Positions 1 to 51,475 of a DNA stretch of 64,000 nt are shown here, in pieces. This DNA is from Candidatus Micrarchaeota archaeon (GTDB lineage: Archaea; Micrarchaeota; Micrarchaeia; Norongarragalinales; SBBD01). Every line of letters starts with the position of its first letter. Position 1 is the first letter of the stretch. The DNA is taken from NCBI GenBank assembly GCA_018819225.1, contig JAHJQN010000004.1:287302-351301 (forward strand), in the 5' to 3' direction. The notes under the pieces are model-generated. The model was not told the DNA's origin and did not search any database. It was given only the letters and a program-made list of their open reading frames with translations. A program made the translations under genes and the position numbers.

Positions 1-72
1 TGTCTTGTAGGGATGGTTAGAAACGCGTTCCAAGAAAACAGGAGGTCGCGAGTTCAATTCTCGCCGGAGGCT
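1..72 (+). tRNA. tRNA-Thr(UGU), 5'-truncated by window edge, with 27-nt canonical intron (10..36)
   Basis: tgt-CT-TGT-A|intron|A-acagg anticodon arm; BHB helix CTTG/CAAG; T arm gcgag-TTCAATT-ctcgc; acceptor 3' strand cggaggc. Confidence 0.88.
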
Positions 73-304
73 TCCGGAAATAATTATTTTCTGTTTTTCT
101 TTCTGGAACATGACCTCGCCAGTTTGAGTGTGACCTTCGCCGGTTTGGCTCCAACCGTAATTGACTTGAATTCGACGCGTTGAATGAGAATTTCGTGTGC
201 AACGCGTTTCCGCACTGCGGGTACGCGACATCCTTTTCAATCGAACGCCATTTCCGCACAGGACTAAAAAACGGCTTTTGGGTTCGATGAGGGAAACCAG
301 AAAC

Positions 305-37477: not shown

Positions 37478-37592
37478 GGGCTCGTAGCTCAGCCGGCAGA
37501 GCGATCGGCTCTTAACCGATAGGTCGAGGGTTCGAAACCCGTTTTATTCCCGTGAAAAATAAAGCGCTTATGCGAAACTCCCTCCGAGCCCG
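37478..37592 (+). tRNA. tRNA-Lys(CUU) with 42-nt T-loop intron at 59/60 (37537..37578)
   Basis: gggctcg/cgagccc; atcgg-CT-CTT-AA-ccgat; gaggg-TTCGAA|..|T-ccctc; helix TTCG/CGAA. Confidence 0.9.
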
Positions 37593-41331: not shown

Positions 41332-41373
41332 AGTGCAGGGGGAGTAAGCGCAGCCGTGGGCTTGAAGCAGACC
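41332..41373 (-). repeat. att-like repeat L1
   Basis: AGTGCAGGGGGAG..AGCC-gtg-GGCT..GCAGACC. Confidence 0.75.
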
Positions 41374-41403
41374 ATCGGAATCCTTGTCCGAAGAAACATT
41401 TAA

Positions 41404-41435
41404 ATATTTATCAGTTGATATATTTATCGGTTGAT
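41404..41435 (+). promoter_or_regulatory. Tandem 16-bp repeat, putative antitoxin operator
   Basis: ATATTTATCAGTTGAT / ATATTTATCGGTTGAT immediately before ATG 41440. Confidence 0.55.
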
Positions 41436-41439
41436 TAAT

Positions 41440-41724
41440 ATGGAAAATATCTTCGTTTCGTTCAAGCCCCGGAATTTGGACCGCTATCCCCGGCTGGATA
41501 CCGTACTCATGGTGGAAAAGGAACTCTTCAAGCACCGTAGCGACAAGACGATTACGGAAATCTGGAGAGGACTTCCAAGGAAAGTCCTGTGGACGACGTA
41601 CACCACCATTCTTGATTACTTGGAATATTCGGGCAAGATCCACATCGAGAAGGACAAAACGATTACGTGGCTCTGGAACCCCCAGCTATTGGAGCGAATA
41701 AAACGAGAGGGCATCGAAGCATGA
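41440..41724 (+). CDS. Putative wHTH antitoxin
   Basis: PRLDTVLMVE..LPRKV..ILDYLEYSGKI; homologous to 43599..43874; stop overlaps toxin start (ATGA). Confidence 0.65.
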   Translation: MENIFVSFKPRNLDRYPRLDTVLMVEKELFKHRSDKTITEIWRGLPRKVLWTTYTTILDYLEYSGKIHIEKDKTITWLWNPQLLERIKREGIEA

Positions 41725-42071
41725 ACGATTCCCGCACTATCCGCGTGCGCTTTGTAGACAGGAAGCTATACGAGACATACCTCAAGTTGAAGGCGGGAAA
41801 AACGGAAGAAAAGAGACTGGCGGAATACTTGGAACGAGCCATCCAAGACCTCAAGAAGGACCCGTTTTGCGGCATCCAAATCCCCCGTAGACTATGGCCG
41901 AAGGATTACGTGCGAAAATACGGCATCAACAACTTGCGGAAGTACGATTTGCCGAACGGCTGGCGATTAGTTTACACGCTGGTCGGCAACCAAATCGAGA
42001 TTGTTTCCATCCTCTTGGAATGGTTCAAGCATAAAGAGTACGAAAAACGCTTTCATTACAAGGTAAGATAA
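41721..42071 (+). CDS. RelE-like toxin
   Basis: LKKDPFCG, YGINNLRKYDLPNGWRLVYTL, HKEYEKRF. Confidence 0.7.
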   Translation: MNDSRTIRVRFVDRKLYETYLKLKAGKTEEKRLAEYLERAIQDLKKDPFCGIQIPRRLWPKDYVRKYGINNLRKYDLPNGWRLVYTLVGNQIEIVSILLEWFKHKEYEKRFHYKVR

Positions 42072-42083
42072 CCATTTTCACGT

Positions 42084-42128
42084 CTGAGTGCAGGGGGAGG
42101 GCAGCGAGCCTATGGCTCTGTGCAGACC
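42084..42128 (-). repeat. att-like repeat L2
   Basis: CTGAGTGCAGGGGGAG..GAGCC-tat-GGCTC..GCAGACC. Confidence 0.78.
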
Positions 42129-42195
42129 GGCTTGTCGTGTATTCGTAGTCATATTTGTAGAAACCTTTATATATTTGTAGTCACCTAAGGATCGT

Positions 42196-43137
42196 ATGCA
42201 TATCGAGATTCGCACGATCGGCAGGAAAAAGAAATTCTACCTTGCTCATTCGTACCGCCGGCAAGGGAAAGTAGTTAAACTGCGGGTTTATCTGGGGTCT
42301 GGCCTTTCCTCAGACGAATTGGCTGCAAGGAAGGTCCGTGCTGAAGAGCGTCTCAGTTTTCGGATTTCGGCAATAGGCTCAATCCGAGATCCGTTTCAAA
42401 CGGCTCTCTCCGCCAGCGAACTGCGGGAACTTGAAACACTCGAAACCAGGGGGGAAATCGCAGTAAGGTACCTGTCGGAAGAGGACTGGCGCAAATTCAC
42501 CGAAGCGTTCGCATTCGACACCAACGCCATCGAAGGCTCTTCGGTTCTTGCAAACGAAGTCGGCGACATTCTGGAAAGGGACAAGTGGCCGGACAAACCG
42601 AAAGAAGACATTTCCGAGACTTACGGGGTTGCCAAGGCAATCGAATTCATACGAAAGACCAAAGACCCCGTTTCCATTCCCCTCGTACTCGAACTCCACC
42701 GGCTGGTCTTCCGGAATTCGAAACCGTTTGCTGGAAGGCTGCGCGGTCGAGGTGTCGAAGTGGTAATCGGCGACGGGAGAGGCAACGTCATCCACCGCGG
42801 CGCGCCTTCCACGCAGGTGCGTAGCCTACTGGGCAAGCTAGTCAAATGGTACGGTGAGAACAAGAAAAAATATCCTCCACTGGTACTGGCCGCCGTGGTG
42901 CATAACCAGTTCGAGAACATCCACCCGTTCCAGGACGGCAACGGCCGAGTCGGAAGGCTGCTATTGAACAACATCCTCCTCAAGCACGGCCTTCCCCCGC
43001 TAAACATCGAGCTCCGCAACCGGCAGGAATACTACGCCGCCCTGCAGGAATACGAGCGCAGCCAGAACATCCGGCCGACAATCGAGCTGATGCTTAAGGA
43101 ATACCGCGCCCTCAAGCGGCTGCTCAAGAAAAGGTGA
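42196..43137 (+). CDS. Fic-domain protein (class II, N-terminal inhibitory motif)
   Basis: HPFQDGNGRVGR active site; TNAIEG fits (S/T)xxxE(G/N); basic beta-rich N-terminal domain. Confidence 0.92.
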   Translation: MHIEIRTIGRKKKFYLAHSYRRQGKVVKLRVYLGSGLSSDELAARKVRAEERLSFRISAIGSIRDPFQTALSASELRELETLETRGEIAVRYLSEEDWRKFTEAFAFDTNAIEGSSVLANEVGDILERDKWPDKPKEDISETYGVAKAIEFIRKTKDPVSIPLVLELHRLVFRNSKPFAGRLRGRGVEVVIGDGRGNVIHRGAPSTQVRSLLGKLVKWYGENKKKYPPLVLAAVVHNQFENIHPFQDGNGRVGRLLLNNILLKHGLPPLNIELRNRQEYYAALQEYERSQNIRPTIELMLKEYRALKRLLKKR

Positions 43138-43186
43138 CTACAAACCCGCAAGCGTAGTCACCCAATGCGCAAACCCCTGGAACTCA

Positions 43187-43240
43187 CAGCCCAAGGCTGA
43201 GTGCAGGGGAAGTAGCTCAAGCCAACGTCTTGCTGCAGTC
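43187..43240 (-). repeat. att-like repeat L3
   Basis: CAGCCCAAGGCTGAGTGCAGGG matches 44020-44041 at 21/22; followed by CAAG..CTTG hairpin and GCAG. Confidence 0.8.
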
Positions 43241-43245
43241 TCTGA

Positions 43246-43602
43246 TCACTTGCGTTTGTAACCGAACCGCTTATCGTATGTCCCGTGAGGACTGATTTCA
43301 AGGACGAAGGCAACAATTTCAACTTCTGTTCCCCCTTCGGTCAGCGAATACAGCATTCTCCAGAATTGAGGGAGTTCTACGCGGAACAGGTTCTTGATCC
43401 CGTACTTCCGCTTGTACTCGTCAGGAATCTTATCTTTAGAGATGGGCTCTCCATAATGAATGTTGGCCTTGATCAGCTCGACTTTTTTATTGATTGCGTT
43501 CAGGATGCTCCTGTCGCGTTTTGACTTGGGTGCTCGCTCATTCAAATACCGGTACACTTTCTCAGCTTCCGGCGAGAGAACGACTCGGACGGTCTTGTTC
43601 AT
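43246..43602 (-). CDS. RelE-like toxin
   Basis: YGIKNLFRVELPQFWRMLYSL, HGTYDKRFGY; homologous to 41721..42071. Confidence 0.7.
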   Translation of the reverse strand: MNKTVRVVLSPEAEKVYRYLNERAPKSKRDRSILNAINKKVELIKANIHYGEPISKDKIPDEYKRKYGIKNLFRVELPQFWRMLYSLTEGGTEVEIVAFVLEISPHGTYDKRFGYKRK

Positions 43603-43874
43603 AGCTCAAGGCCTCTGGCAATGGCTTTCCTGAGAGCAGGATTGTCATTGGCGATCCATGAAATACCTTTCAGGGAAACAGCGATCTTGTTGCTGGCCTC
43701 CAAATATTCTAAAATAACCATCAAGGTATAGTGGTTGACCTGCTTCGGAAGCATTCTTTTCAGTTCGGCAATTGTAATGACGCTCTTCTTCATGTTTGCC
43801 AAAACCTCTTCCACCATGATGACGGTTTTCAAGTTCGGCGCATGCGCAAATTCCACGTTATACATAGTCATCAC
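43599..43874 (-). CDS. Putative wHTH antitoxin
   Basis: PNLKTVIMVE..LPKQV..ILEYLEASNKI. Confidence 0.65.
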   Translation of the reverse strand: MMTMYNVEFAHAPNLKTVIMVEEVLANMKKSVITIAELKRMLPKQVNHYTLMVILEYLEASNKIAVSLKGISWIANDNPALRKAIARGLEL

Positions 43875-43971
43875 TTTATTTTACAAATTCATAACCTATT
43901 TGTATTTATTAGTATATTTAAGCCTTTCGGTACCTCGTTTTAACTAATCAAAGGAAATAGGTAGAAGCGTA

Positions 43972-44009
43972 CAGCCTATAGGGGAAGTCACCGTAGACGA
44001 TTCTACAGC
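43972..44009 (-). repeat. Degenerate att-like repeat L4
   Basis: CAGCC..AGGGGAAGT as in L3, plus hairpin ACCGTAGA-cgat-TCTACAGC. Confidence 0.45.
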
Positions 44010-44034
44010 TGGGCACTTCCAGCCCAGGGCTGAG

Positions 44035-44179
44035 TGCAGGGAGAGGGATTTGAACCCTCGAAGCTTCTACAGCACAGGATTTCCTAAAACCCTTTCTTTT
44101 CTCGTCGAGGTCTTTTCTTTACAAAAAGAAAAGAGGTCGCTTAAGTCCCGCCCCTTTGACCGAACTTGGGTACCCCTGC
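44035..44179 (-). tRNA. tRNA-Leu(UAA) with 59-nt canonical intron (44081..44139)
   Basis: gcagggg/tccctgc, A73; cggga-CT-TAA-G|..|A-tcctg; long variable arm; gaggg-TTCAAAT-ccctc. Confidence 0.92.
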
Positions 44180-44547: not shown

Positions 44548-44708
44548 GCCTCCGTAGCTCAGTAGTAGAGACGGAACCTTTTCTTTTTTAATAGAAAAGC
44601 TTCACCAAAAGAAGAAGCGAATAAAAGCGCCTCCGTAGCTCAGTAGTAGAGCGCGAACCTTTTCTTTAATAAAGAAAAGCTTCACCAAAAGAAAGCGCGT
44701 ATTCCCAT
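44548..44708 (+). repeat. Two ~80-bp units, each a tRNA-Thr 5' fragment plus a U/A-rich hairpin element
   Basis: GCCTCCGTAGCTCAGTAGTAGAG at 44548, 44629 and 44709. Confidence 0.9.
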
Positions 44709-44780
44709 GCCTCCGTAGCTCAGTAGTAGAGCGCTTCCTTGGTAAGGAAGAGGTCGCGGGTGCGATTCCCGCCGGAGGCT
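44709..44780 (+). tRNA. tRNA-Thr(GGU), intronless
   Basis: gcctccg/cggaggc; cttcc-TT-GGT-AA-ggaag; T loop TGCGATT. Confidence 0.88.
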
Positions 44781-44793
44781 TGAATTCTTTTTT

Positions 44794-46881
44794 TTAATTT
44801 CGTATCTTCTTGTGAATGACGCGTTTACGTTTGTCGTGGAAGAACCAAGCACTCGCTACAGCCACTGAAAAGAGTAGAATAAGCCAGACGCTGTTAGAGA
44901 AAAGACCTCGTTCCTCTTGACGACGTCGATATTCTTGTTCAGCCGCAAGATACCCTGACTCTCCCCGCAAAACGGTTTGTTTCGGAATCCCCACCATCAA
45001 TGGACTGCCACCAGGAGGCCAGCGAGTCGGAACCGGTGAAGGAGTGACCGTGGATTCGGGCTCGCCCATTCCAGAAGGAACGTACTCCAGATCATTCGTT
45101 ATCAACAGCTTGTCTAATTGCATTCCATCCTCACGGTTGCGAACCGTCAACGTATGGAAACCAGCGGAAAGATCAAACGCAAGAGGATCCAAAGGAGGAG
45201 AACGGCTGTTCGCGACATCCCACCGCCACACGTTGCCGCCCGCCGTATCCCAAATATATTCTGCACCGCCATCCATGCGAATGAACACGCTGTCTGCTGC
45301 CGTGTGAGGAGACAATTCACGACCCCAAACGCGATATTCTCCTGAAACGGGAACCTCGAAAGAATAGGTCAAGAGGTCGGCGTCGCCGCCTGCATTGAAC
45401 GGAACGAGCACGAATTCGCCATTGGAAGCGTCTTCATCCACATCAATGACCCACGCTCCGAGCAAGGACGAAAAGTGTTCGGCCTCCACCCAATAATAGG
45501 AGTATCCCGGAACAGCCGTAGGAGAACATGAACCCAAACAACATACGCCGGACCCGCAATACCCTTCATCCTCCAAGAAACAATCATCGTAGAAACCGCA
45601 GTTGGCGCGACACGACCCACCCAATGCTTCGCAAGGAACGGGTGTCGGCGTGCTCGTGCACGATCCGATACAGCAGATTCCAGTCGAACAATAACCCTCG
45701 GCATCCCAAACGCATTCATTGAATTGACTACAATCCTCTAAACATTGTCCGCCCAAATCCTCCTCGCAATAAATATCCGAGCCGCCGCCTTCAAAAGTCA
45801 GCGTGGCCTGGATGAGATTGAAGGAATCGAACGATCCTTGTCCGGAAAACACGAGCCAAACCGTTTCTCCATTCGCGCTGATCCACTTGCTCGGAAAATT
45901 GTAAAAGAATGAAGGCTCGTAATCCCAAGAATCAAAAATGGCTACGGTATACCAGGGCCCCCAAGGATTCGGTGCCTCAAAAATAGACATGCCGCTACCT
46001 GAAACCCCGCCGTTGTCTCCCACGTGGTGATCGCCGACCAATAAGTACCTCCCCGAAGGAGAATGATACGTGACAACCGGAGGTGCCCAACCCACATTCT
46101 CTTTAATGAAAACGGGTTGTCGGAGAGTCAAGTCATTCGTCCATTGGTTTAAACCAGTCGAGAATTCATACTGATCCCGATCCCAAATGAAATCTTTAGG
46201 AACGCGCATTAAATCCACTTCCCCGGGAACCTGAACCTTGAGACCGGTAGCATCCTTCAACCGCGTCGCGTACATATACACGAATCCATCCGGCGACGCC
46301 GCATCCTCCCCGTACTGCGAGATGCTGGGTAAAATCAATTCGTTTTCTTCAGTGAACATCCAATTGTTTTGAAGTTCCCAAGTTGCCCCATGATCGTACG
46401 AACGCGCCAGCCTCGCATTATCGTAATTCATATTATTGGAACCCGGACTGACCCACATGTATAATACGCCATCAATGGAAACGATCCCGTAAGACTTGCC
46501 GGTAAACGTAGCGGGATTTTCTGCAGCACACGAAGCAGGAGGCGCATGTTCTGGATTTTCGCAACTGCCGTCCCCCAACGCATGGCACCCCCATAAATTG
46601 ACGGGCACGAAATCGACGGCATCCCCTTCAATGCGAGTTAAACCCAAACTAGCGCGACAAAGGGTATTGGATCCTTCAAAACCGCCTCCGTCACCCCAAC
46701 TCGTGTATTGATGACCGTCATCCGCCCAAGTCATCGGAAAATTATCGCTTCCTGAAGCGGCATTGAAATAGGTCGCAGGATTAAACGAGATGTCGGTAAT
46801 GACGGTGCTTGACGGATACGCCACGTTCAGCGAAAGAAAACATATGAAAAAAACAAGAAAGGTACGGAATGCCCCTCGCAT
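44794..46881 (-). CDS. Secreted membrane-anchored protein: DUF4185-like beta-propeller/glycosidase-like domain, Cys repeats, CBM-like domain
   Basis: Signal peptide; SDNFPMTWADDG, Asp-box SYDHGATW, EAPNPWGPW; two C..LGG.C repeats; EAE...REDG...D jelly-roll motif; C-terminal TM. Confidence 0.65.
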   Translation of the reverse strand: MRGAFRTFLVFFICFLSLNVAYPSSTVITDISFNPATYFNAASGSDNFPMTWADDGHQYTSWGDGGGFEGSNTLCRASLGLTRIEGDAVDFVPVNLWGCHALGDGSCENPEHAPPASCAAENPATFTGKSYGIVSIDGVLYMWVSPGSNNMNYDNARLARSYDHGATWELQNNWMFTEENELILPSISQYGEDAASPDGFVYMYATRLKDATGLKVQVPGEVDLMRVPKDFIWDRDQYEFSTGLNQWTNDLTLRQPVFIKENVGWAPPVVTYHSPSGRYLLVGDHHVGDNGGVSGSGMSIFEAPNPWGPWYTVAIFDSWDYEPSFFYNFPSKWISANGETVWLVFSGQGSFDSFNLIQATLTFEGGGSDIYCEEDLGGQCLEDCSQFNECVWDAEGYCSTGICCIGSCTSTPTPVPCEALGGSCRANCGFYDDCFLEDEGYCGSGVCCLGSCSPTAVPGYSYYWVEAEHFSSLLGAWVIDVDEDASNGEFVLVPFNAGGDADLLTYSFEVPVSGEYRVWGRELSPHTAADSVFIRMDGGAEYIWDTAGGNVWRWDVANSRSPPLDPLAFDLSAGFHTLTVRNREDGMQLDKLLITNDLEYVPSGMGEPESTVTPSPVPTRWPPGGSPLMVGIPKQTVLRGESGYLAAEQEYRRRQEERGLFSNSVWLILLFSVAVASAWFFHDKRKRVIHKKIRN

Positions 46882-46925
46882 GGAACCACCTATTTCTTAC
46901 TAGTCTTCCTCGGTTTTAATAAGTG

Positions 46926-46969
46926 CGGGCTTTGCACCTTTTGGGCGAGCCACGCCGGAGGCTTACGGA
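46926..46969 (+). repeat. att-like repeat T1
   Basis: 39/44 identical to 47517-47560; contains tRNA-Thr 3' end CGCCGGAGGCT. Confidence 0.85.
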
Positions 46970-46993
46970 AAAGCATGACAAAAAGGCGATCGA

Positions 46994-47236
46994 TTAGGAA
47001 TAAATATTCTGACGGTGCCCCGCGTCATGCAAGCGAACGGCGTTCTTGCTTAAAGAGTAAATGATCCGGTAGTCGCCGACCCGCAAGCTAAAGAAATTCG
47101 ACAGGCGCCCGTGAAGCCGTTTGCCCGCGCGAGGAAATTGGCCAAGAAGCGTAACTTCACGGAGCAGCCGCACCCGAATATTGCGAGGCAACTTGCGGAA
47201 AGACTTTTGGAAGTGATTGGAATAAAGCACTTCCAT
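46994..47236 (-). CDS. RelE/ParE-family toxin
   Basis: FQKSFRKL, GKRLHG, SLRVGDYRIIY, GHRQNIY. Confidence 0.88.
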   Translation of the reverse strand: MEVLYSNHFQKSFRKLPRNIRVRLLREVTLLGQFPRAGKRLHGRLSNFFSLRVGDYRIIYSLSKNAVRLHDAGHRQNIYS

Positions 47237-47241
47237 GCGAA

Positions 47242-47436
47242 TTACACCTTCAGATTAACAATGGAATGAAATCGGCCATCCGAAAAATCCTTCTCAGATG
47301 AACGAATTCCTTTTAGTAGTTTCTTGTCTGCGAGGACTTCCAGCGTTTCCTGCAAAGATTCGAAAGCATCCCTGGCTTCTTCAAAGCTCTTCTTCGCTGC
47401 GTTCAATTCCTTCCGAATAGATGAACCGACGTACAT
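47242..47436 (-). CDS. Putative antitoxin
   Basis: FESLQETLEVLADKKLLKGIRSSEKD (YefM/RelB-like C-terminus), upstream of toxin. Confidence 0.65.
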   Translation of the reverse strand: MYVGSSIRKELNAAKKSFEEARDAFESLQETLEVLADKKLLKGIRSSEKDFSDGRFHSIVNLKV

Positions 47437-47516
47437 TCTAAGTCCCTTACAACAGCAGTAAAACGAGCTTTATAATACTTGCTAGACACGAGCGCCATTG
47501 GATTTGTCTCGAGGTA

Positions 47517-47560
47517 CGGGCTTTGCACCTTTTGGCCGAGTCCCTCCGGAGGCTTCCGGA
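47517..47560 (+). repeat. att-like repeat T2
   Basis: CGGGCTTTGCACCTTTTGGCCGAGTCCCTCCGGAGGCTTCCGGA. Confidence 0.85.
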
Positions 47561-47636
47561 TTTTTAGATTTCAACGGCAGCATACCCTTCCGAAAGGAAT
47601 ATATATGGACTTAGTTCATATTGATATGGTGATAAC

Positions 47637-47867
47637 ATGGTGCATGCATTAGTCAATATTTCGGAAGAAGCAAACCGCGTGTTGAACGTGATTAAAGCGA
47701 AAAAGAATTTGCGAACCAAATCAGAGGCGATTGAGGAGATGGCGCGAGAGTACGAGCAAGAACTCTTGGAACCCGAACTTCGACCGGAATACGTGGAACG
47801 CATTCGGAAAATCGGCAAGCAAAAAACGATTACAGTGAAGGACTTCGAAAAAGAGTTTCTGAGCTGA
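47637..47867 (+). CDS. DUF2683-like antitoxin
   Basis: NRVLNVIKAK..L..KSEAI, LEPELRPEY. Confidence 0.75.
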   Translation: MVHALVNISEEANRVLNVIKAKKNLRTKSEAIEEMAREYEQELLEPELRPEYVERIRKIGKQKTITVKDFEKEFLS

Positions 47868-47874
47868 TGGCGGC

Positions 47875-48141
47875 ATGTATGGTCTCGAAGTGTCTCCGGA
47901 AGCGTATGCCCGGTTCAAAAAGATGCGAAAAAAGAACCGCTGGCTACTCGAAGTCATTGGCAAGAAGGTCCGGCATATACGCGAGCGCCCCCATCATTTC
48001 AAACCGCTTCATTTCCCCCTTCATAACAAACGACGGGTCCATATTGCGGGATCGTTTGTACTCGTCTATGAAATCAGGGAAAAAGACAAAACCGTTGTCA
48101 TCATAGACTTCGACCACCACGATAACGTTTACATGAAATGA
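47875..48141 (+). CDS. RelE/StbE-family toxin
   Basis: HFKPL, RRVHIAGSFVLVYEI, FDHHDNVY. Confidence 0.85.
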   Translation: MYGLEVSPEAYARFKKMRKKNRWLLEVIGKKVRHIRERPHHFKPLHFPLHNKRRVHIAGSFVLVYEIREKDKTVVIIDFDHHDNVYMK

Positions 48142-48188
48142 CGGAATCGGTTTAAGCGAACGAATGGATGGGGGTATATCGTTTGAAT

Positions 48189-48205
48189 GAGTCCGGCCGG
48201 AGGCT
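48189..48205 (+). repeat. att-like repeat T3 (distal, degenerate)
   Basis: GAGTCC-G-GCCGGAGGCT, followed by a T-tract at ~48219. Confidence 0.6.
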
Positions 48206-48261
48206 CTGAACGTTCCGCATTTTTTTTATTCTTGGTTCAATGGGGATTGCGAAAACCGCGG

Positions 48262-49326
48262 TCATACCCACTTTTGTTTCCGGAAATAAAACAGCATGAC
48301 GAATGATATCGCGATCATGAACATCCAGAGAATCGGATAGGCTAACGGCCAATCCAACTCGGGCATGAAACGAAAATTCATGCCGTACACTCCGACAATG
48401 AACGTCAGCGGAATAAAGAGAGTGGCAATAACGGTTAAGGTCTTCATGACCTCGTTCATCCGATTGCTGATGCTGGACATGTAGAGGTCCATCATCCCGG
48501 ATAAAAGATCGCGGTACGAATCGATGGAATCAATGGCGTGGATGATGTGGTCGTAAACGTCCCGCAAGAACACGGCGGTCTGGTTCTTGATCAGCTTCGA
48601 TTCGTTCCGCTGGAGTCCGCTGATGACTTCCCTCAATGGCCACACGCCCTTCCGCAAGAACACCAAATCCGTTTTCATGGCGTGAATGGAATGCAGCGTG
48701 GACTGGGACGGGTTCGCCACCAGTTCTCCCTCCAATTGCTCTATGCGTTCCCCCAATTCCTCCAGAATGACAAAATAATGGTCGACGACGGAATCGATCA
48801 ACGTATAAAAAAGGTAATCGGCGCCCATCCTCCGAATCCGTCCTTTTCCCTTGCGAAGACGTTCGCGAAGCGGATCAAAAACGTCTCCGGGTTTTTCCTG
48901 AAAAGAAATCACGTACTGCTTTCCAAGAATCACGCTGACTTGTTCGGACTCCACCCTCTTTTTTTCCCGATCAAAATAGAGCATTTTCATGACTAAAAAA
49001 AGGTGGTCCCCGAAATCCTCGAGCTTGGGGCGTTGATCAGTATGGACGATATCCTCGATGAGCATCGGATGAAAACCCAAACGATCTCCCAGTTTCTGGA
49101 TCCCTTGCGAATCGTGCACGCCGTCCACGTTAATCCACGTAATCGAGGGCGCGTCTTTGATCGGAAAACACGCATCAAACGAGTCCGGTTTAAGTTCTTT
49201 CACGTCATCCGAAGTAAAATTAAAAAGCGTGATTTCCACGCGATCCGTTTTCTTTTCGCCCACGAATACTGCCGTACCCGGACTCAACCCCGCTTTCTTT
49301 GAAGCCCTTTTGAAATACCGCGACAT
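48262..49326 (-). CDS. corA: Magnesium/cobalt transporter CorA
   Basis: QRPKLEDF, NEVMKTLT, YGMNF..MPEL.W. Confidence 0.95.
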   Translation of the reverse strand: MSRYFKRASKKAGLSPGTAVFVGEKKTDRVEITLFNFTSDDVKELKPDSFDACFPIKDAPSITWINVDGVHDSQGIQKLGDRLGFHPMLIEDIVHTDQRPKLEDFGDHLFLVMKMLYFDREKKRVESEQVSVILGKQYVISFQEKPGDVFDPLRERLRKGKGRIRRMGADYLFYTLIDSVVDHYFVILEELGERIEQLEGELVANPSQSTLHSIHAMKTDLVFLRKGVWPLREVISGLQRNESKLIKNQTAVFLRDVYDHIIHAIDSIDSYRDLLSGMMDLYMSSISNRMNEVMKTLTVIATLFIPLTFIVGVYGMNFRFMPELDWPLAYPILWMFMIAISFVMLFYFRKQKWV

Positions 49327-49458
49327 CTCCCACTACCCCGTTAAAGAAGATGGCTAAACCCATTAAAAACCCCTCTTGACTGAAGCTAATCATTCCCGAA
49401 CGGGAATAAGAACTTGTTCAACATTAAGTTAAATAATTGGATCGAACTCAATGGCGTC

Positions 49459-49641
49459 ATGGCCAAGAAAAACCTGAAGGAAAGGATTTCCCATCCAAAA
49501 TTTCCGACGCTCGAACAACGAAAGCGATTCGCCTCGGGGGACATTCACGCTATGGGAATCAGAAAAATACGGTACGGGGTTCTTCCACCGAGATTAAGGG
49601 AAAGGGTGAATGAGCACCTCATCGAAACCCGACTCACGTGA
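49459..49641 (+). CDS. Small basic hypothetical protein
   Basis: ORF MAKKNLKERI... after an AT-rich promoter-like stretch. Confidence 0.35.
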   Translation: MAKKNLKERISHPKFPTLEQRKRFASGDIHAMGIRKIRYGVLPPRLRERVNEHLIETRLT

Positions 49642-49766
49642 ATAGCTTCGGATGCTCCAGCCGACAAGAGACAAGAAGAGTAAGAGGCGCACGAAACCCT
49701 CTAGAGCGGAATCAACCCAAGTCTTAAAAGCGCTCAGGAATAGAAGGTTTTGAAAGAGGGGTCGTC

Positions 49767-50486
49767 ATGGAATTCAAGGGAAAAAAAGCATTGATTACCG
49801 GAAGCGCCGTGCGATTCGGAAGACATGTGGCGCTCGAGCTCGCGAAACAAGGTGCGGACGTCGCCATCCACTACCGAGACAGTGAAAAGGAAGCGGAAAA
49901 AGTCGTTAATGGAATCAAGGAAATGGGGAGGAAAAGCCAGGCGTTTCCCGCGGAGTTGACAGACGCAAAGCAAGCCGTGAAAATGGTGCGGGATGCCTCC
50001 GAGTTTTTGCACGGACTCGACATTCTTGTGAACAACGCCTCCTCGGTATACGTACATAAACACGTGACGGAAGTGCAACCGGATGAATGGAAGCGCGTGC
50101 TCGACACGGATTTGAACGGGGCGTTTTACTGCACGCATGCCGTGCTCCCCATCATGCACATGCAAAAATACGGGCGCATCATCAACATGGGAGCCGTCGG
50201 TTGCGGAATCATTCAAGCCAAACCCCTCACCACAGCATATTCCGCAGCGAAAACCGGTTTATTGATTCTAACAAAAAGCGTGGCTGCATCAGAAGTGCAA
50301 AACGGGATTACCTGCAACATGGTATCTCCCGGCATCATGGAAATCAGCGAAGAAAAACGAAACGTTCCATTGAAACGATACGCGAAATACGATGAAGTGT
50401 TGCGAGCGGTCTTGTTCCTCGCCAGCGAGAAAAGCGCGTATATCACGGGACAAAACATGGAGGTCGCGGGTGCGTACCAGCTGTGA
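49767..50486 (+). CDS. Short-chain dehydrogenase, FolM/pteridine reductase-like
   Basis: TGSAVRFG, AIHY, NNAS, YSAAK; overlaps folE start. Confidence 0.8.
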   Translation: MEFKGKKALITGSAVRFGRHVALELAKQGADVAIHYRDSEKEAEKVVNGIKEMGRKSQAFPAELTDAKQAVKMVRDASEFLHGLDILVNNASSVYVHKHVTEVQPDEWKRVLDTDLNGAFYCTHAVLPIMHMQKYGRIINMGAVGCGIIQAKPLTTAYSAAKTGLLILTKSVAASEVQNGITCNMVSPGIMEISEEKRNVPLKRYAKYDEVLRAVLFLASEKSAYITGQNMEVAGAYQL

Positions 50487-50968
50487 AACGAATCATCAAG
50501 CCCCAAAAACTCGCGGAAATGCTGGAATTCTTTAATGAAGGGTATGAAACGAATTGGAAAAAAGTACTGAAAACCAGGAAAAGCGGCGAACACGGGGAAG
50601 TGGTATTCCGAAAGATTCCGTTCCACAGTTTATGCGAACACCACGGCCTGCCGTTCCACGGGGAATGCACGATCGCGTACTTGCCGAACGGGAAATTGCT
50701 GGGGCTTGCGAGATTTCTCCAACTCGTGGAAGCGTTGAGTCATCGAATGCAGATTCAAGAAAAACTGACGCGCGAGATCGCGGAAAAGCTGCAAAAATAC
50801 GTCCGGCCTAAAGGCGTTGCGGTTTTTATGAAAGGAACGCATTTCTGCACCGTCATTTCCAGCGGAAAAACAACGGATATGGAAACCGCGTTCTTTACGG
50901 GCGACTATGAAAAAAGCGAGGGAAGAAAAAACGCGTTTTTAATCCGAGCTGGAAAAAGAGGGAAGTAA
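50483..50968 (+). CDS. folE: GTP cyclohydrolase I, short N-terminus
   Basis: SLCEHH.LPF.G, YLP, QIQEKLT, HFC. Confidence 0.85.
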   Translation: MKRIIKPQKLAEMLEFFNEGYETNWKKVLKTRKSGEHGEVVFRKIPFHSLCEHHGLPFHGECTIAYLPNGKLLGLARFLQLVEALSHRMQIQEKLTREIAEKLQKYVRPKGVAVFMKGTHFCTVISSGKTTDMETAFFTGDYEKSEGRKNAFLIRAGKRGK

Positions 50969-51475
50969 ATGATCATCAACCGAGAACAAATATTGCAACG
51001 CATTCTCCAAGACCAATTGATCACCCATTACCAGGAAATTAAAAGCCAGTTGCAACCCGCCGGATTTGACTTGCGCGTCGAAAAAGTGTATTCGTTTGAA
51101 AGCCAGGGCGCCATTGACTTCGACAATTCCGAGAGGAAAATCAGCGACGCGAAAGAGATGGAGTGGGAAAGCAATGGATGGCTGGAGTTGAAGCCCGGAA
51201 CGTATAAAGTGCAGTTCGCGGAAGAAGTGCGTTTGCCGGCGGACCTGGCGGCGCACACCATTTTGAGATCTTCATTGATGCGGTGCGGATGCGTCATGCA
51301 CCAAGGGTTCTGGGACCCGGGATACAACGGCAAAGGCGAAAGCGTCATCATCGTGGGAAATCCGAAGGGATTGAAGCTCAAGAAAGGAGCGAAAATCGCG
51401 CAAATGGTTTTTCACAAACTGGCGGCGGAAACGGATGCGTTATACGAAGGCATTCACCAGAGAGAAAACCTTTAA
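50969..51475 (+). CDS. Trimeric dUTPase / dCTP deaminase family
   Basis: QPAGFDL, RSSLMRCG, WDPGYNG, IAQMVF. Confidence 0.85.
   Translation: MIINREQILQRILQDQLITHYQEIKSQLQPAGFDLRVEKVYSFESQGAIDFDNSERKISDAKEMEWESNGWLELKPGTYKVQFAEEVRLPADLAAHTILRSSLMRCGCVMHQGFWDPGYNGKGESVIIVGNPKGLKLKKGAKIAQMVFHKLAAETDALYEGIHQRENL

Follow-up and report, generated by a model that had tools for sequence, protein, structure and literature searches.

We analysed a 64,000-nt stretch of a Candidatus Micrarchaeota genome, hereafter the window (G000:C2:287302-351301; the genome comprises 1.37 Mb in 8 contigs and is 90% complete), in which the intact tRNA-Thr(GGT) gene is followed by three small gene cassettes, each closed by a partial copy of the tRNA 3' end (T1, T2 and T3; Table 1). 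Its tRNAs are rich in introns and its relatives have small genomes, in line with a DPANN archaeon. The array is real and well delimited. With a probability that we put at roughly 0.6, T1-T3 are attR-type attachment-site junctions that record three or more site-specific insertions, made one after another at the 3' end of tRNA-Thr(GGT), an integrase-less tandem accretion of the kind formed by cis-mobilizable elements (CIMEs).

A well-preserved T site consists of a 24-nt non-tRNA arm (GGGCTTTGCACCTTTTGG and a few further bases) followed by 19-20 nt of the tRNA-Thr(GGT) end, and its tRNA-like part spans the region from halfway along the T-loop to the discriminator. As described in the initial annotation, T1 and T2 were identical at 39 of 44 positions; CCGGAGGCT, the last 9 bases of the tRNA, terminates both. 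In T2 and in a copy on contig C7, the tRNA-like part extends into the T-loop (CCGAGTCCC..; 17/19 identical to the tRNA). The 15-nt core TCCCGCCGGAGGCTT contained two mismatches in T1, one in T2 and two in T3, and elsewhere in the window it was never found with fewer than three, except at the end of the neighbouring tRNA-Thr(TGT) gene. The account of T3 as a more eroded site followed by a T-tract also held: T3 matched T2 at 15 of 17 positions over GAGTCC..CCGGAGGCT, the remainder of the arm was absent, and a run of eight T residues was located at 48222-48229. All three sites are direct repeats in the orientation of the tRNA. The core of T2 and its right flank form the palindrome TCCGGAGGCTTCCGGA; this palindrome (CCGG-AGGCTT-CCGG) is imperfect after T1 and exact after tRNA-Thr(TGT), and would suit the core site of a tyrosine recombinase. 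The tRNA-Thr(TGT) gene itself (window 1-79, gene start C2:287275) has an intron in the anticodon loop, its 3' end and flank form the same perfect palindrome as at T2, and no copy of the arm was detected downstream of it within the window.

Insertion next to the tRNA is supported by broken synteny, by the polarity of tRNA-end copies across the genome, and by a cassette with the same arm on contig C7. The order aIF2-beta, tRNA-Leu(TAA, minus strand)/tRNA-Thr(GGT, plus strand), dCTP deaminase was common to five sister-genus genomes. Between the tRNA-Thr end and the dCTP deaminase gene lie 0.4, 1.5, 3.2, and 3.2 kb in the four genomes measured, versus 6.2 kb here, and the DNA content of this interval differed in each of them. 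In two sister-genus relatives, a different ParE-like pair abuts the tRNA-Thr end, with only family-level similarity to the pairs of the window. The CorA, short-chain dehydrogenase, and GTP cyclohydrolase I genes between T3 and the dCTP deaminase gene are also missing from the loci of the relatives, and therefore T3 is not the outer edge of the extra DNA; this segment (48262-50968) had no match in those loci, no bounding repeat, and no further copy of the core. When the last 11 nt of each predicted tRNA were searched within 8 kb across the genome, allowing at most one mismatch, 20 copies were located downstream on the same strand, compared with 2 upstream on the same strand, 2 downstream on the opposite strand, and 5 upstream on the opposite strand. 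In this streamlined DPANN genome, new genes appear to enter mainly at tRNA ends.

T1-like sequences, for which the initial annotation proposed a link to tRNA-Thr, were not scattered over the genome. The 18-nt arm core was found exactly at only three places, namely T1, T2, and C7:35535-35552 (T4), and the third copy also accompanies a tRNA-Thr end: T4 closes a unit on contig C7 that opens with T5, a 21/22 copy of the tRNA-Thr(GGT) end, so the tie of the arm to tRNA-Thr holds. Between T5 and T4 lies a 471-aa open reading frame (ORF) that had no Pfam match and is unrelated to the 695-aa protein of cassette 1. The unit is located downstream of a FtsZ/CetZ-like gene, and the sequence upstream of T5 showed a collinear, statistically weak likeness to the rest of the tRNA (p 0.12). 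In the 67 other genomes of the same order, the arm was absent at up to 3 mismatches, apart from a single match in G043 with 3 mismatches, which was within an apparent coding stretch with no tRNA nearby.

The window stretch was present in two groundwater metagenome runs, one of which is its probable source. The second run contained the same strain at about 2x coverage, with identical T1 and T3 junctions, and the arrangement was unchanged in the contigs of both. No excision joint or empty site was found in the assembled contigs of the two runs, which drop rare variants; two joints listed from these contigs were explained by repeats on contig C7.

The initial annotation listed as cargo a glycosidase-like surface protein of 695 aa, a minus-strand toxin-antitoxin pair, and a plus-strand toxin-antitoxin pair. 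The three sets of genes were recovered as listed, and the term glycosidase-like is only hinted at by a weak match to DUF4185 (38.7 bits, just under the cut-off) and another to GH115_C. The claim that the cargo extends beyond toxin-antitoxin genes was also borne out, by this surface-type protein and by the 471-aa ORF on C7. No homologue of the 695-aa protein was found in the 67 genomes of the order, and four partial paralogues are present in its own genome. Paralogous segments lie in three other long ORFs (G000:C2:283500-286400 and C7:131000-136500), with 49% identity over residues 362-609 and common C-terminal segments. The units measure 0.55-2.1 kb, and each is a single tight transcription unit, with an AT-rich TATA-like box, recognised by reading of the sequence, upstream of its first gene. 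The cassette boundaries are 13-76 bp from the gene ends (13 and 44 bp for the 695-aa ORF). The GC content was 0.468 in cassette 2 and 0.451 in cassette 3, versus 0.505 in the window. Homologues of the cassette 3 ParE are patchy in the order and at most 53% identical; at 11 loci of the order, none was within 1.5 kb of an intron-less tRNA, and a single core-like match was found at these loci, attributable to chance.

Table 1. Features of the tRNA-Thr(GGT) array and of the related unit on contig C7 (window coordinates unless a contig is given).
Feature	Position	Strand	Remarks
tRNA-Thr(GGT) 5'-end stubs, two in tandem	44548-44708	+	starts 44548 and 44629; first 23-26 nt of tRNA each
tRNA-Thr(GGT), intact, array anchor	44709-44780	+	ARAGORN; Rfam tRNA 71 bits
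Cassette 1	44781-46925	-	695-aa ORF at 44794-46881; hydrophobic N-terminus, Cys-rich repeats
T1, arm and tRNA-Thr 3'-end copy (putative attR-type junction)	46926-46969	+	13/15 to core TCCCGCCGGAGGCTT
Cassette 2	46970-47516	-	ParE toxin (80 aa) 46994-47236; 64-aa upstream partner 47242-47436; Pfam ParE_toxin 30.7 bits
T2, arm and tRNA-Thr 3'-end copy	47517-47560	+	14/15 to core TCCCGCCGGAGGCTT
Cassette 3	47561-48179	+	DUF2683/RHH antitoxin-like (76 aa) 47637-47867; ParE toxin (88 aa) 47875-48141
T3, eroded shorter arm and tRNA-Thr 3'-end copy	about 48180-48206	+	13/15 to core TCCCGCCGGAGGCTT
Further lineage-specific DNA	48262-50968		CorA, short-chain dehydrogenase, GTP cyclohydrolase I; next is dCTP deaminase at 50969, where synteny resumes
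C7 unit	G000:C7:35516-37470		T5, 471-aa ORF, full T arm (T4); T4 1.9 kb downstream of T5

These results can be arranged into a model of tandem insertion at the tRNA. An incoming unit, a single self-contained transcription unit without a recombinase, would carry an attachment site in which a short arm specific to the element is joined to a copy of the tRNA end, starting halfway along the T-loop. Recombination within the common stretch would regenerate an intact tRNA and leave an arm-plus-core junction behind the unit. Earlier units would thereby be pushed away from the gene, repeated use of the site would build the stack, and the order of insertion would run from the outermost unit inwards. The recombinase would have acted in trans or has perhaps been lost since. 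As for the nature of the units, they may be mobile mini-cassettes or deletion remnants retained as toxin-antitoxin pairs resist loss. The tight cassette boundaries favour mini-cassettes with a borrowed enzyme over remnants, and the absence of a cognate element favours neither. Of the earlier proposal that erosion with distance reflects polarised insertion beside the tRNA, the insertion part stands; the gradient itself is weak, because the core mismatches number 2, 1, and 2 and only the arm of T3, a single site, is eroded.

Several observations weigh against tandem insertion. No recombinase family was detected in or beside the array (44781-50968). The genome contains a single tyrosine recombinase (306 aa, C2:97226-98146; 55 bits against the XerA model, cut-off 220), and the att sequence and repeats at its tRNA-Ser(CGA) locus differ from those of the array. 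Neither an SSV-type integrase, a serine recombinase, a Y1 transposase nor TnpB was found in the 90%-complete genome (no match to PF01797 and none above the cut-off to PF07282), and the integron-integrase model gave only 16.6 bits against a cut-off of 265, on a distant gene. The only Cas1 is a 558-aa Cas4-Cas1 fusion beside Cas2 in a normal CRISPR locus. The genome yielded no cognate integrase-bearing element of the same att specificity. In the viral and metagenome collections, the arm did not occur on any other element beyond chance: there was no match in metagenome_contigs, and two matches in viral_contigs to a 17-base arm pattern were judged by estimate to be at chance level, their loci not being opened. 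Matches to the core pattern in viral_contigs are probably ordinary tRNA-Thr genes. The left ends of the cassettes have only T(A/C)CGGA in common. Furthermore, the position of the C7 unit is tRNA-free in six relatives, so simple integration into a resident tRNA is insufficient there unless a lineage-specific tRNA copy has been lost.

The tyrosine recombinase locus (G000:C2:95190-98253) looks like a classical integrated element: the gene converges on tRNA-Ser(CGA) and overlaps the tRNA 3' end, copies of which lie 2.0 and 2.9 kb downstream. The CRISPR array, with a 36-nt repeat, occupies G000:C2:33-3100, and a second small array with the same repeat is located at C7:14-250.

In this genome, a hairpin module (cTTTGGTCGAG-CTTTCTT-loop-AAGAAAG-GTCG; the M family) occurs within 50-110 nt after many of the tRNAs, followed by a second copy of the last 11-16 nt of the respective tRNA. 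This layout, tRNA end, module, and second end copy, was present at at least seven tRNAs, and its mirror form, 5' stub, inverted module, and tRNA, at three (tRNA-Thr(GGT) twice, tRNA-Thr(CGT), and tRNA-Leu(CAA)). The module also lies within the introns of tRNA-Thr(CGT) and tRNA-Leu(TAA). At the array anchor, each 5' stub is followed by an M-family hairpin spacer with a TATA-like loop, and these spacers are the reverse complement of the module seen after other tRNAs. A genome of another genus (G045) has the stub layout too, upstream of its tRNA-Thr(GGT) orthologue. A tandem 47-nt satellite composed of the hairpin module and a linker was located at G000:C1:268170-268309 and C6:1-160, and the contig ends of C1 and C6 bearing it probably join.

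The distribution of the module raised an alternative, in which the T arm belongs to the M family and the cassettes were inserted not by a classical integrase but by a transposition-like mechanism of the family itself, with duplication of the target end. In addition to the two layouts described above, it draws on the alignment of the T arm to the module linker, for which the shuffle p was about 0.001 with the inverted 5'-stub spacer and about 0.006 with a copy on C1. Since several comparisons were tried, this kinship is only suggestive. The T sites, however, lack the hairpin of the module, and the genome showed neither a transposase nor a solo Cas1. In the relative G047 (locus L071, G047:C1, about 1455-1570), the last 30 nt of a conserved protein gene are present twice, one copy on either side of the module. 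The two have six differences, every one synonymous, and each encodes VLQASGIEI-stop; the distal one is nearer to the orthologue in the present genome and looks native. This is the pattern that import of a replacement gene end by integrating DNA would predict, and not duplication of a target site followed by drift. We consider transposition by the M family unlikely. Local duplication or gene conversion of one boundary sequence within a variable region was also considered, given that only three sites exist and that T1 and T2 are closer to each other than either is to the tRNA. It appears quite improbable, as the sequences flanking T1 and T2 are unrelated on both sides, the arm also closes an unrelated unit on another contig (C7), and the orientation bias is seen for many tRNAs.

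The T sites might instead be functional tRNA-like elements. They could serve as terminators, as decoys, as signals for 3' processing, or as the 3' pieces of a split tRNA whose partners are the 5' stubs upstream. They carry the acceptor 3' strand, transcription of both from the plus strand would make the 5'-stub spacer partly complementary to the T arm, and the tRNA introns of this organism are unusual. Against this, no anticodon and no T arm of the tRNA fold can be put together, sequences upstream of the T sites have no similarity to tRNA (p 0.17-0.99), T1 and T2 lie antisense to, or between, neighbouring genes, and the sites are conserved in no relative. The hairpins that had been proposed for T1 and T2 were not supported either: compared with dinucleotide shuffles of single strands, the z values were -0.8 (T1), +0.9 (T2), +0.6 (T4), and +1.15 (T3), and the minimum-energy folds of T1 and T2 differ. 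The covariation suggested as a check on the stem was likewise not seen, the difference between T1 and T2 being a register-shifting indel with no compensatory change in three near-identical copies. A functional role of this kind is therefore highly improbable.

A bolder proposal is that the T arm and the similar hairpin element are recombination sites of a cassette-capture system that stacks self-contained mini-cassettes at tRNA gene ends of DPANN archaea and relies on a recombinase acting in trans, encoded either by the host or by an unbinned plasmid or virus. We regard it as rather unlikely. If true, the system would be a tRNA-anchored, integrase-remote functional counterpart of the integron, and its arm would be shared with the elements that give rise to tRNA stubs and tRNA introns in this lineage as well.

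Other candidates were rejected. A split tRNA or a decayed full tRNA at T1-T4 did not fit, as only about 20 tRNA-like bases are present and the upstream shuffle p was 0.17-0.99; the conspicuous CTTCCTCGGT before T1 was within chance. A casposon was dismissed, as the sole Cas1 is CRISPR-linked and no common left-end repeat was found, and an IS200/IS605 or REP/RAYT hairpin element likewise, as the genome has no Y1 (HUH) transposase. An integron was not accepted, as there is no IntI beside the anchor and the T sites fold no better than shuffles. A conserved left-end hairpin, as seen after tRNA-Leu and tRNA-Val, was unsupported, with only the T1 flank reaching p 0.04.

The neighbouring tRNA-Leu(TAA), which bears an intron, has its own three-unit array on the minus strand (window 41340-44179). 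Copies of CCCTGCACT, preceded by another conserved arm (CTGC and a small hairpin), delimit its units; one unit contains Fic and one a ParE/YoeB-like gene. In the relative G039, only ~75 nt separate the tRNA-Leu end and the aIF2-beta gene. A tRNA-Lys(CTT)-like gene at window 37478-37590 has ~40 nt inserted into its T arm, within the 3' side; it was missed by ARAGORN without the intron option, and its Rfam match covers model positions 8-63 only.

Repeated insertion at a tRNA is a known process, and the array is a minimal form of it, without a recombinase gene of its own. Streptococcal CIMEs measure 1.2-13 kb and gene-less microCIMEs 130-220 bp, and they are without exception the units lying farthest from the gene targeted (PMC7563491). 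As in that system, the present units are bounded by att sites on both sides, contain no recombination or transfer genes, and lie in tandem at the 3' end of a gene; the size range there, from gene-less stubs to a few kb, and the position of the most decayed unit farthest from the target are also comparable (PMC7563491). Streptococcal CIMEs, however, were detected in tandem with an integrative and conjugative element (ICE) or an integrative and mobilizable element (IME) that supplies the integrase, whereas no cognate element was found in the genome here; moreover, the host is a DPANN archaeon. In Dehalococcoides, 20-bp repeats separate the tandem ssrA islands, and immediately upstream of each repeat is a conserved motif derived from the element (PMC3146451). 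Both arrays have ~20-bp copies of the 3' end of a small-RNA gene and insertion in the T-loop region, and some of the Dehalococcoides islands also lack an integration module (PMC3146451). Those islands are larger and many have a serine recombinase module, whereas the units here, at 0.55-2.1 kb, have none.

In archaea, att sites may measure as little as 8 bp, and integrated elements re-use one site and form arrays (PMC6563490). The present array shares with them tRNA targets, short att repeats (8-26 bp in Thaumarchaeota), and re-use of the site (PMC6563490, PMC8371274), but the described archaeal elements normally encode their own (tyrosine) integrase and the units here do not. Small, mostly single-function cassettes, often encoding toxin-antitoxin pairs, with a uniform site orientation beside a fixed anchor are reminiscent of integron arrays; unlike integrons, there is no IntI by the anchor and no attC-type fold, and the cassettes have their own putative promoters and lie on either strand. 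Overall, the array fits the tandem tRNA-gene type of integration, without two of its usual features, namely the integrase of the element and a cognate integrase-bearing partner.

Mobile elements are thought to spread toxin-antitoxin and accessory genes, yet many such genes sit in genomes with no visible vehicle. Arrays such as this one, composed of tight, promoter-carrying units with attachment sites but no recombinase, make a route of transfer testable. Any relationship between the arm and the hairpin element found in tRNA introns would also be relevant to the long-standing idea that mobile-element traffic at tRNA genes gave rise to tRNA introns and split tRNAs.

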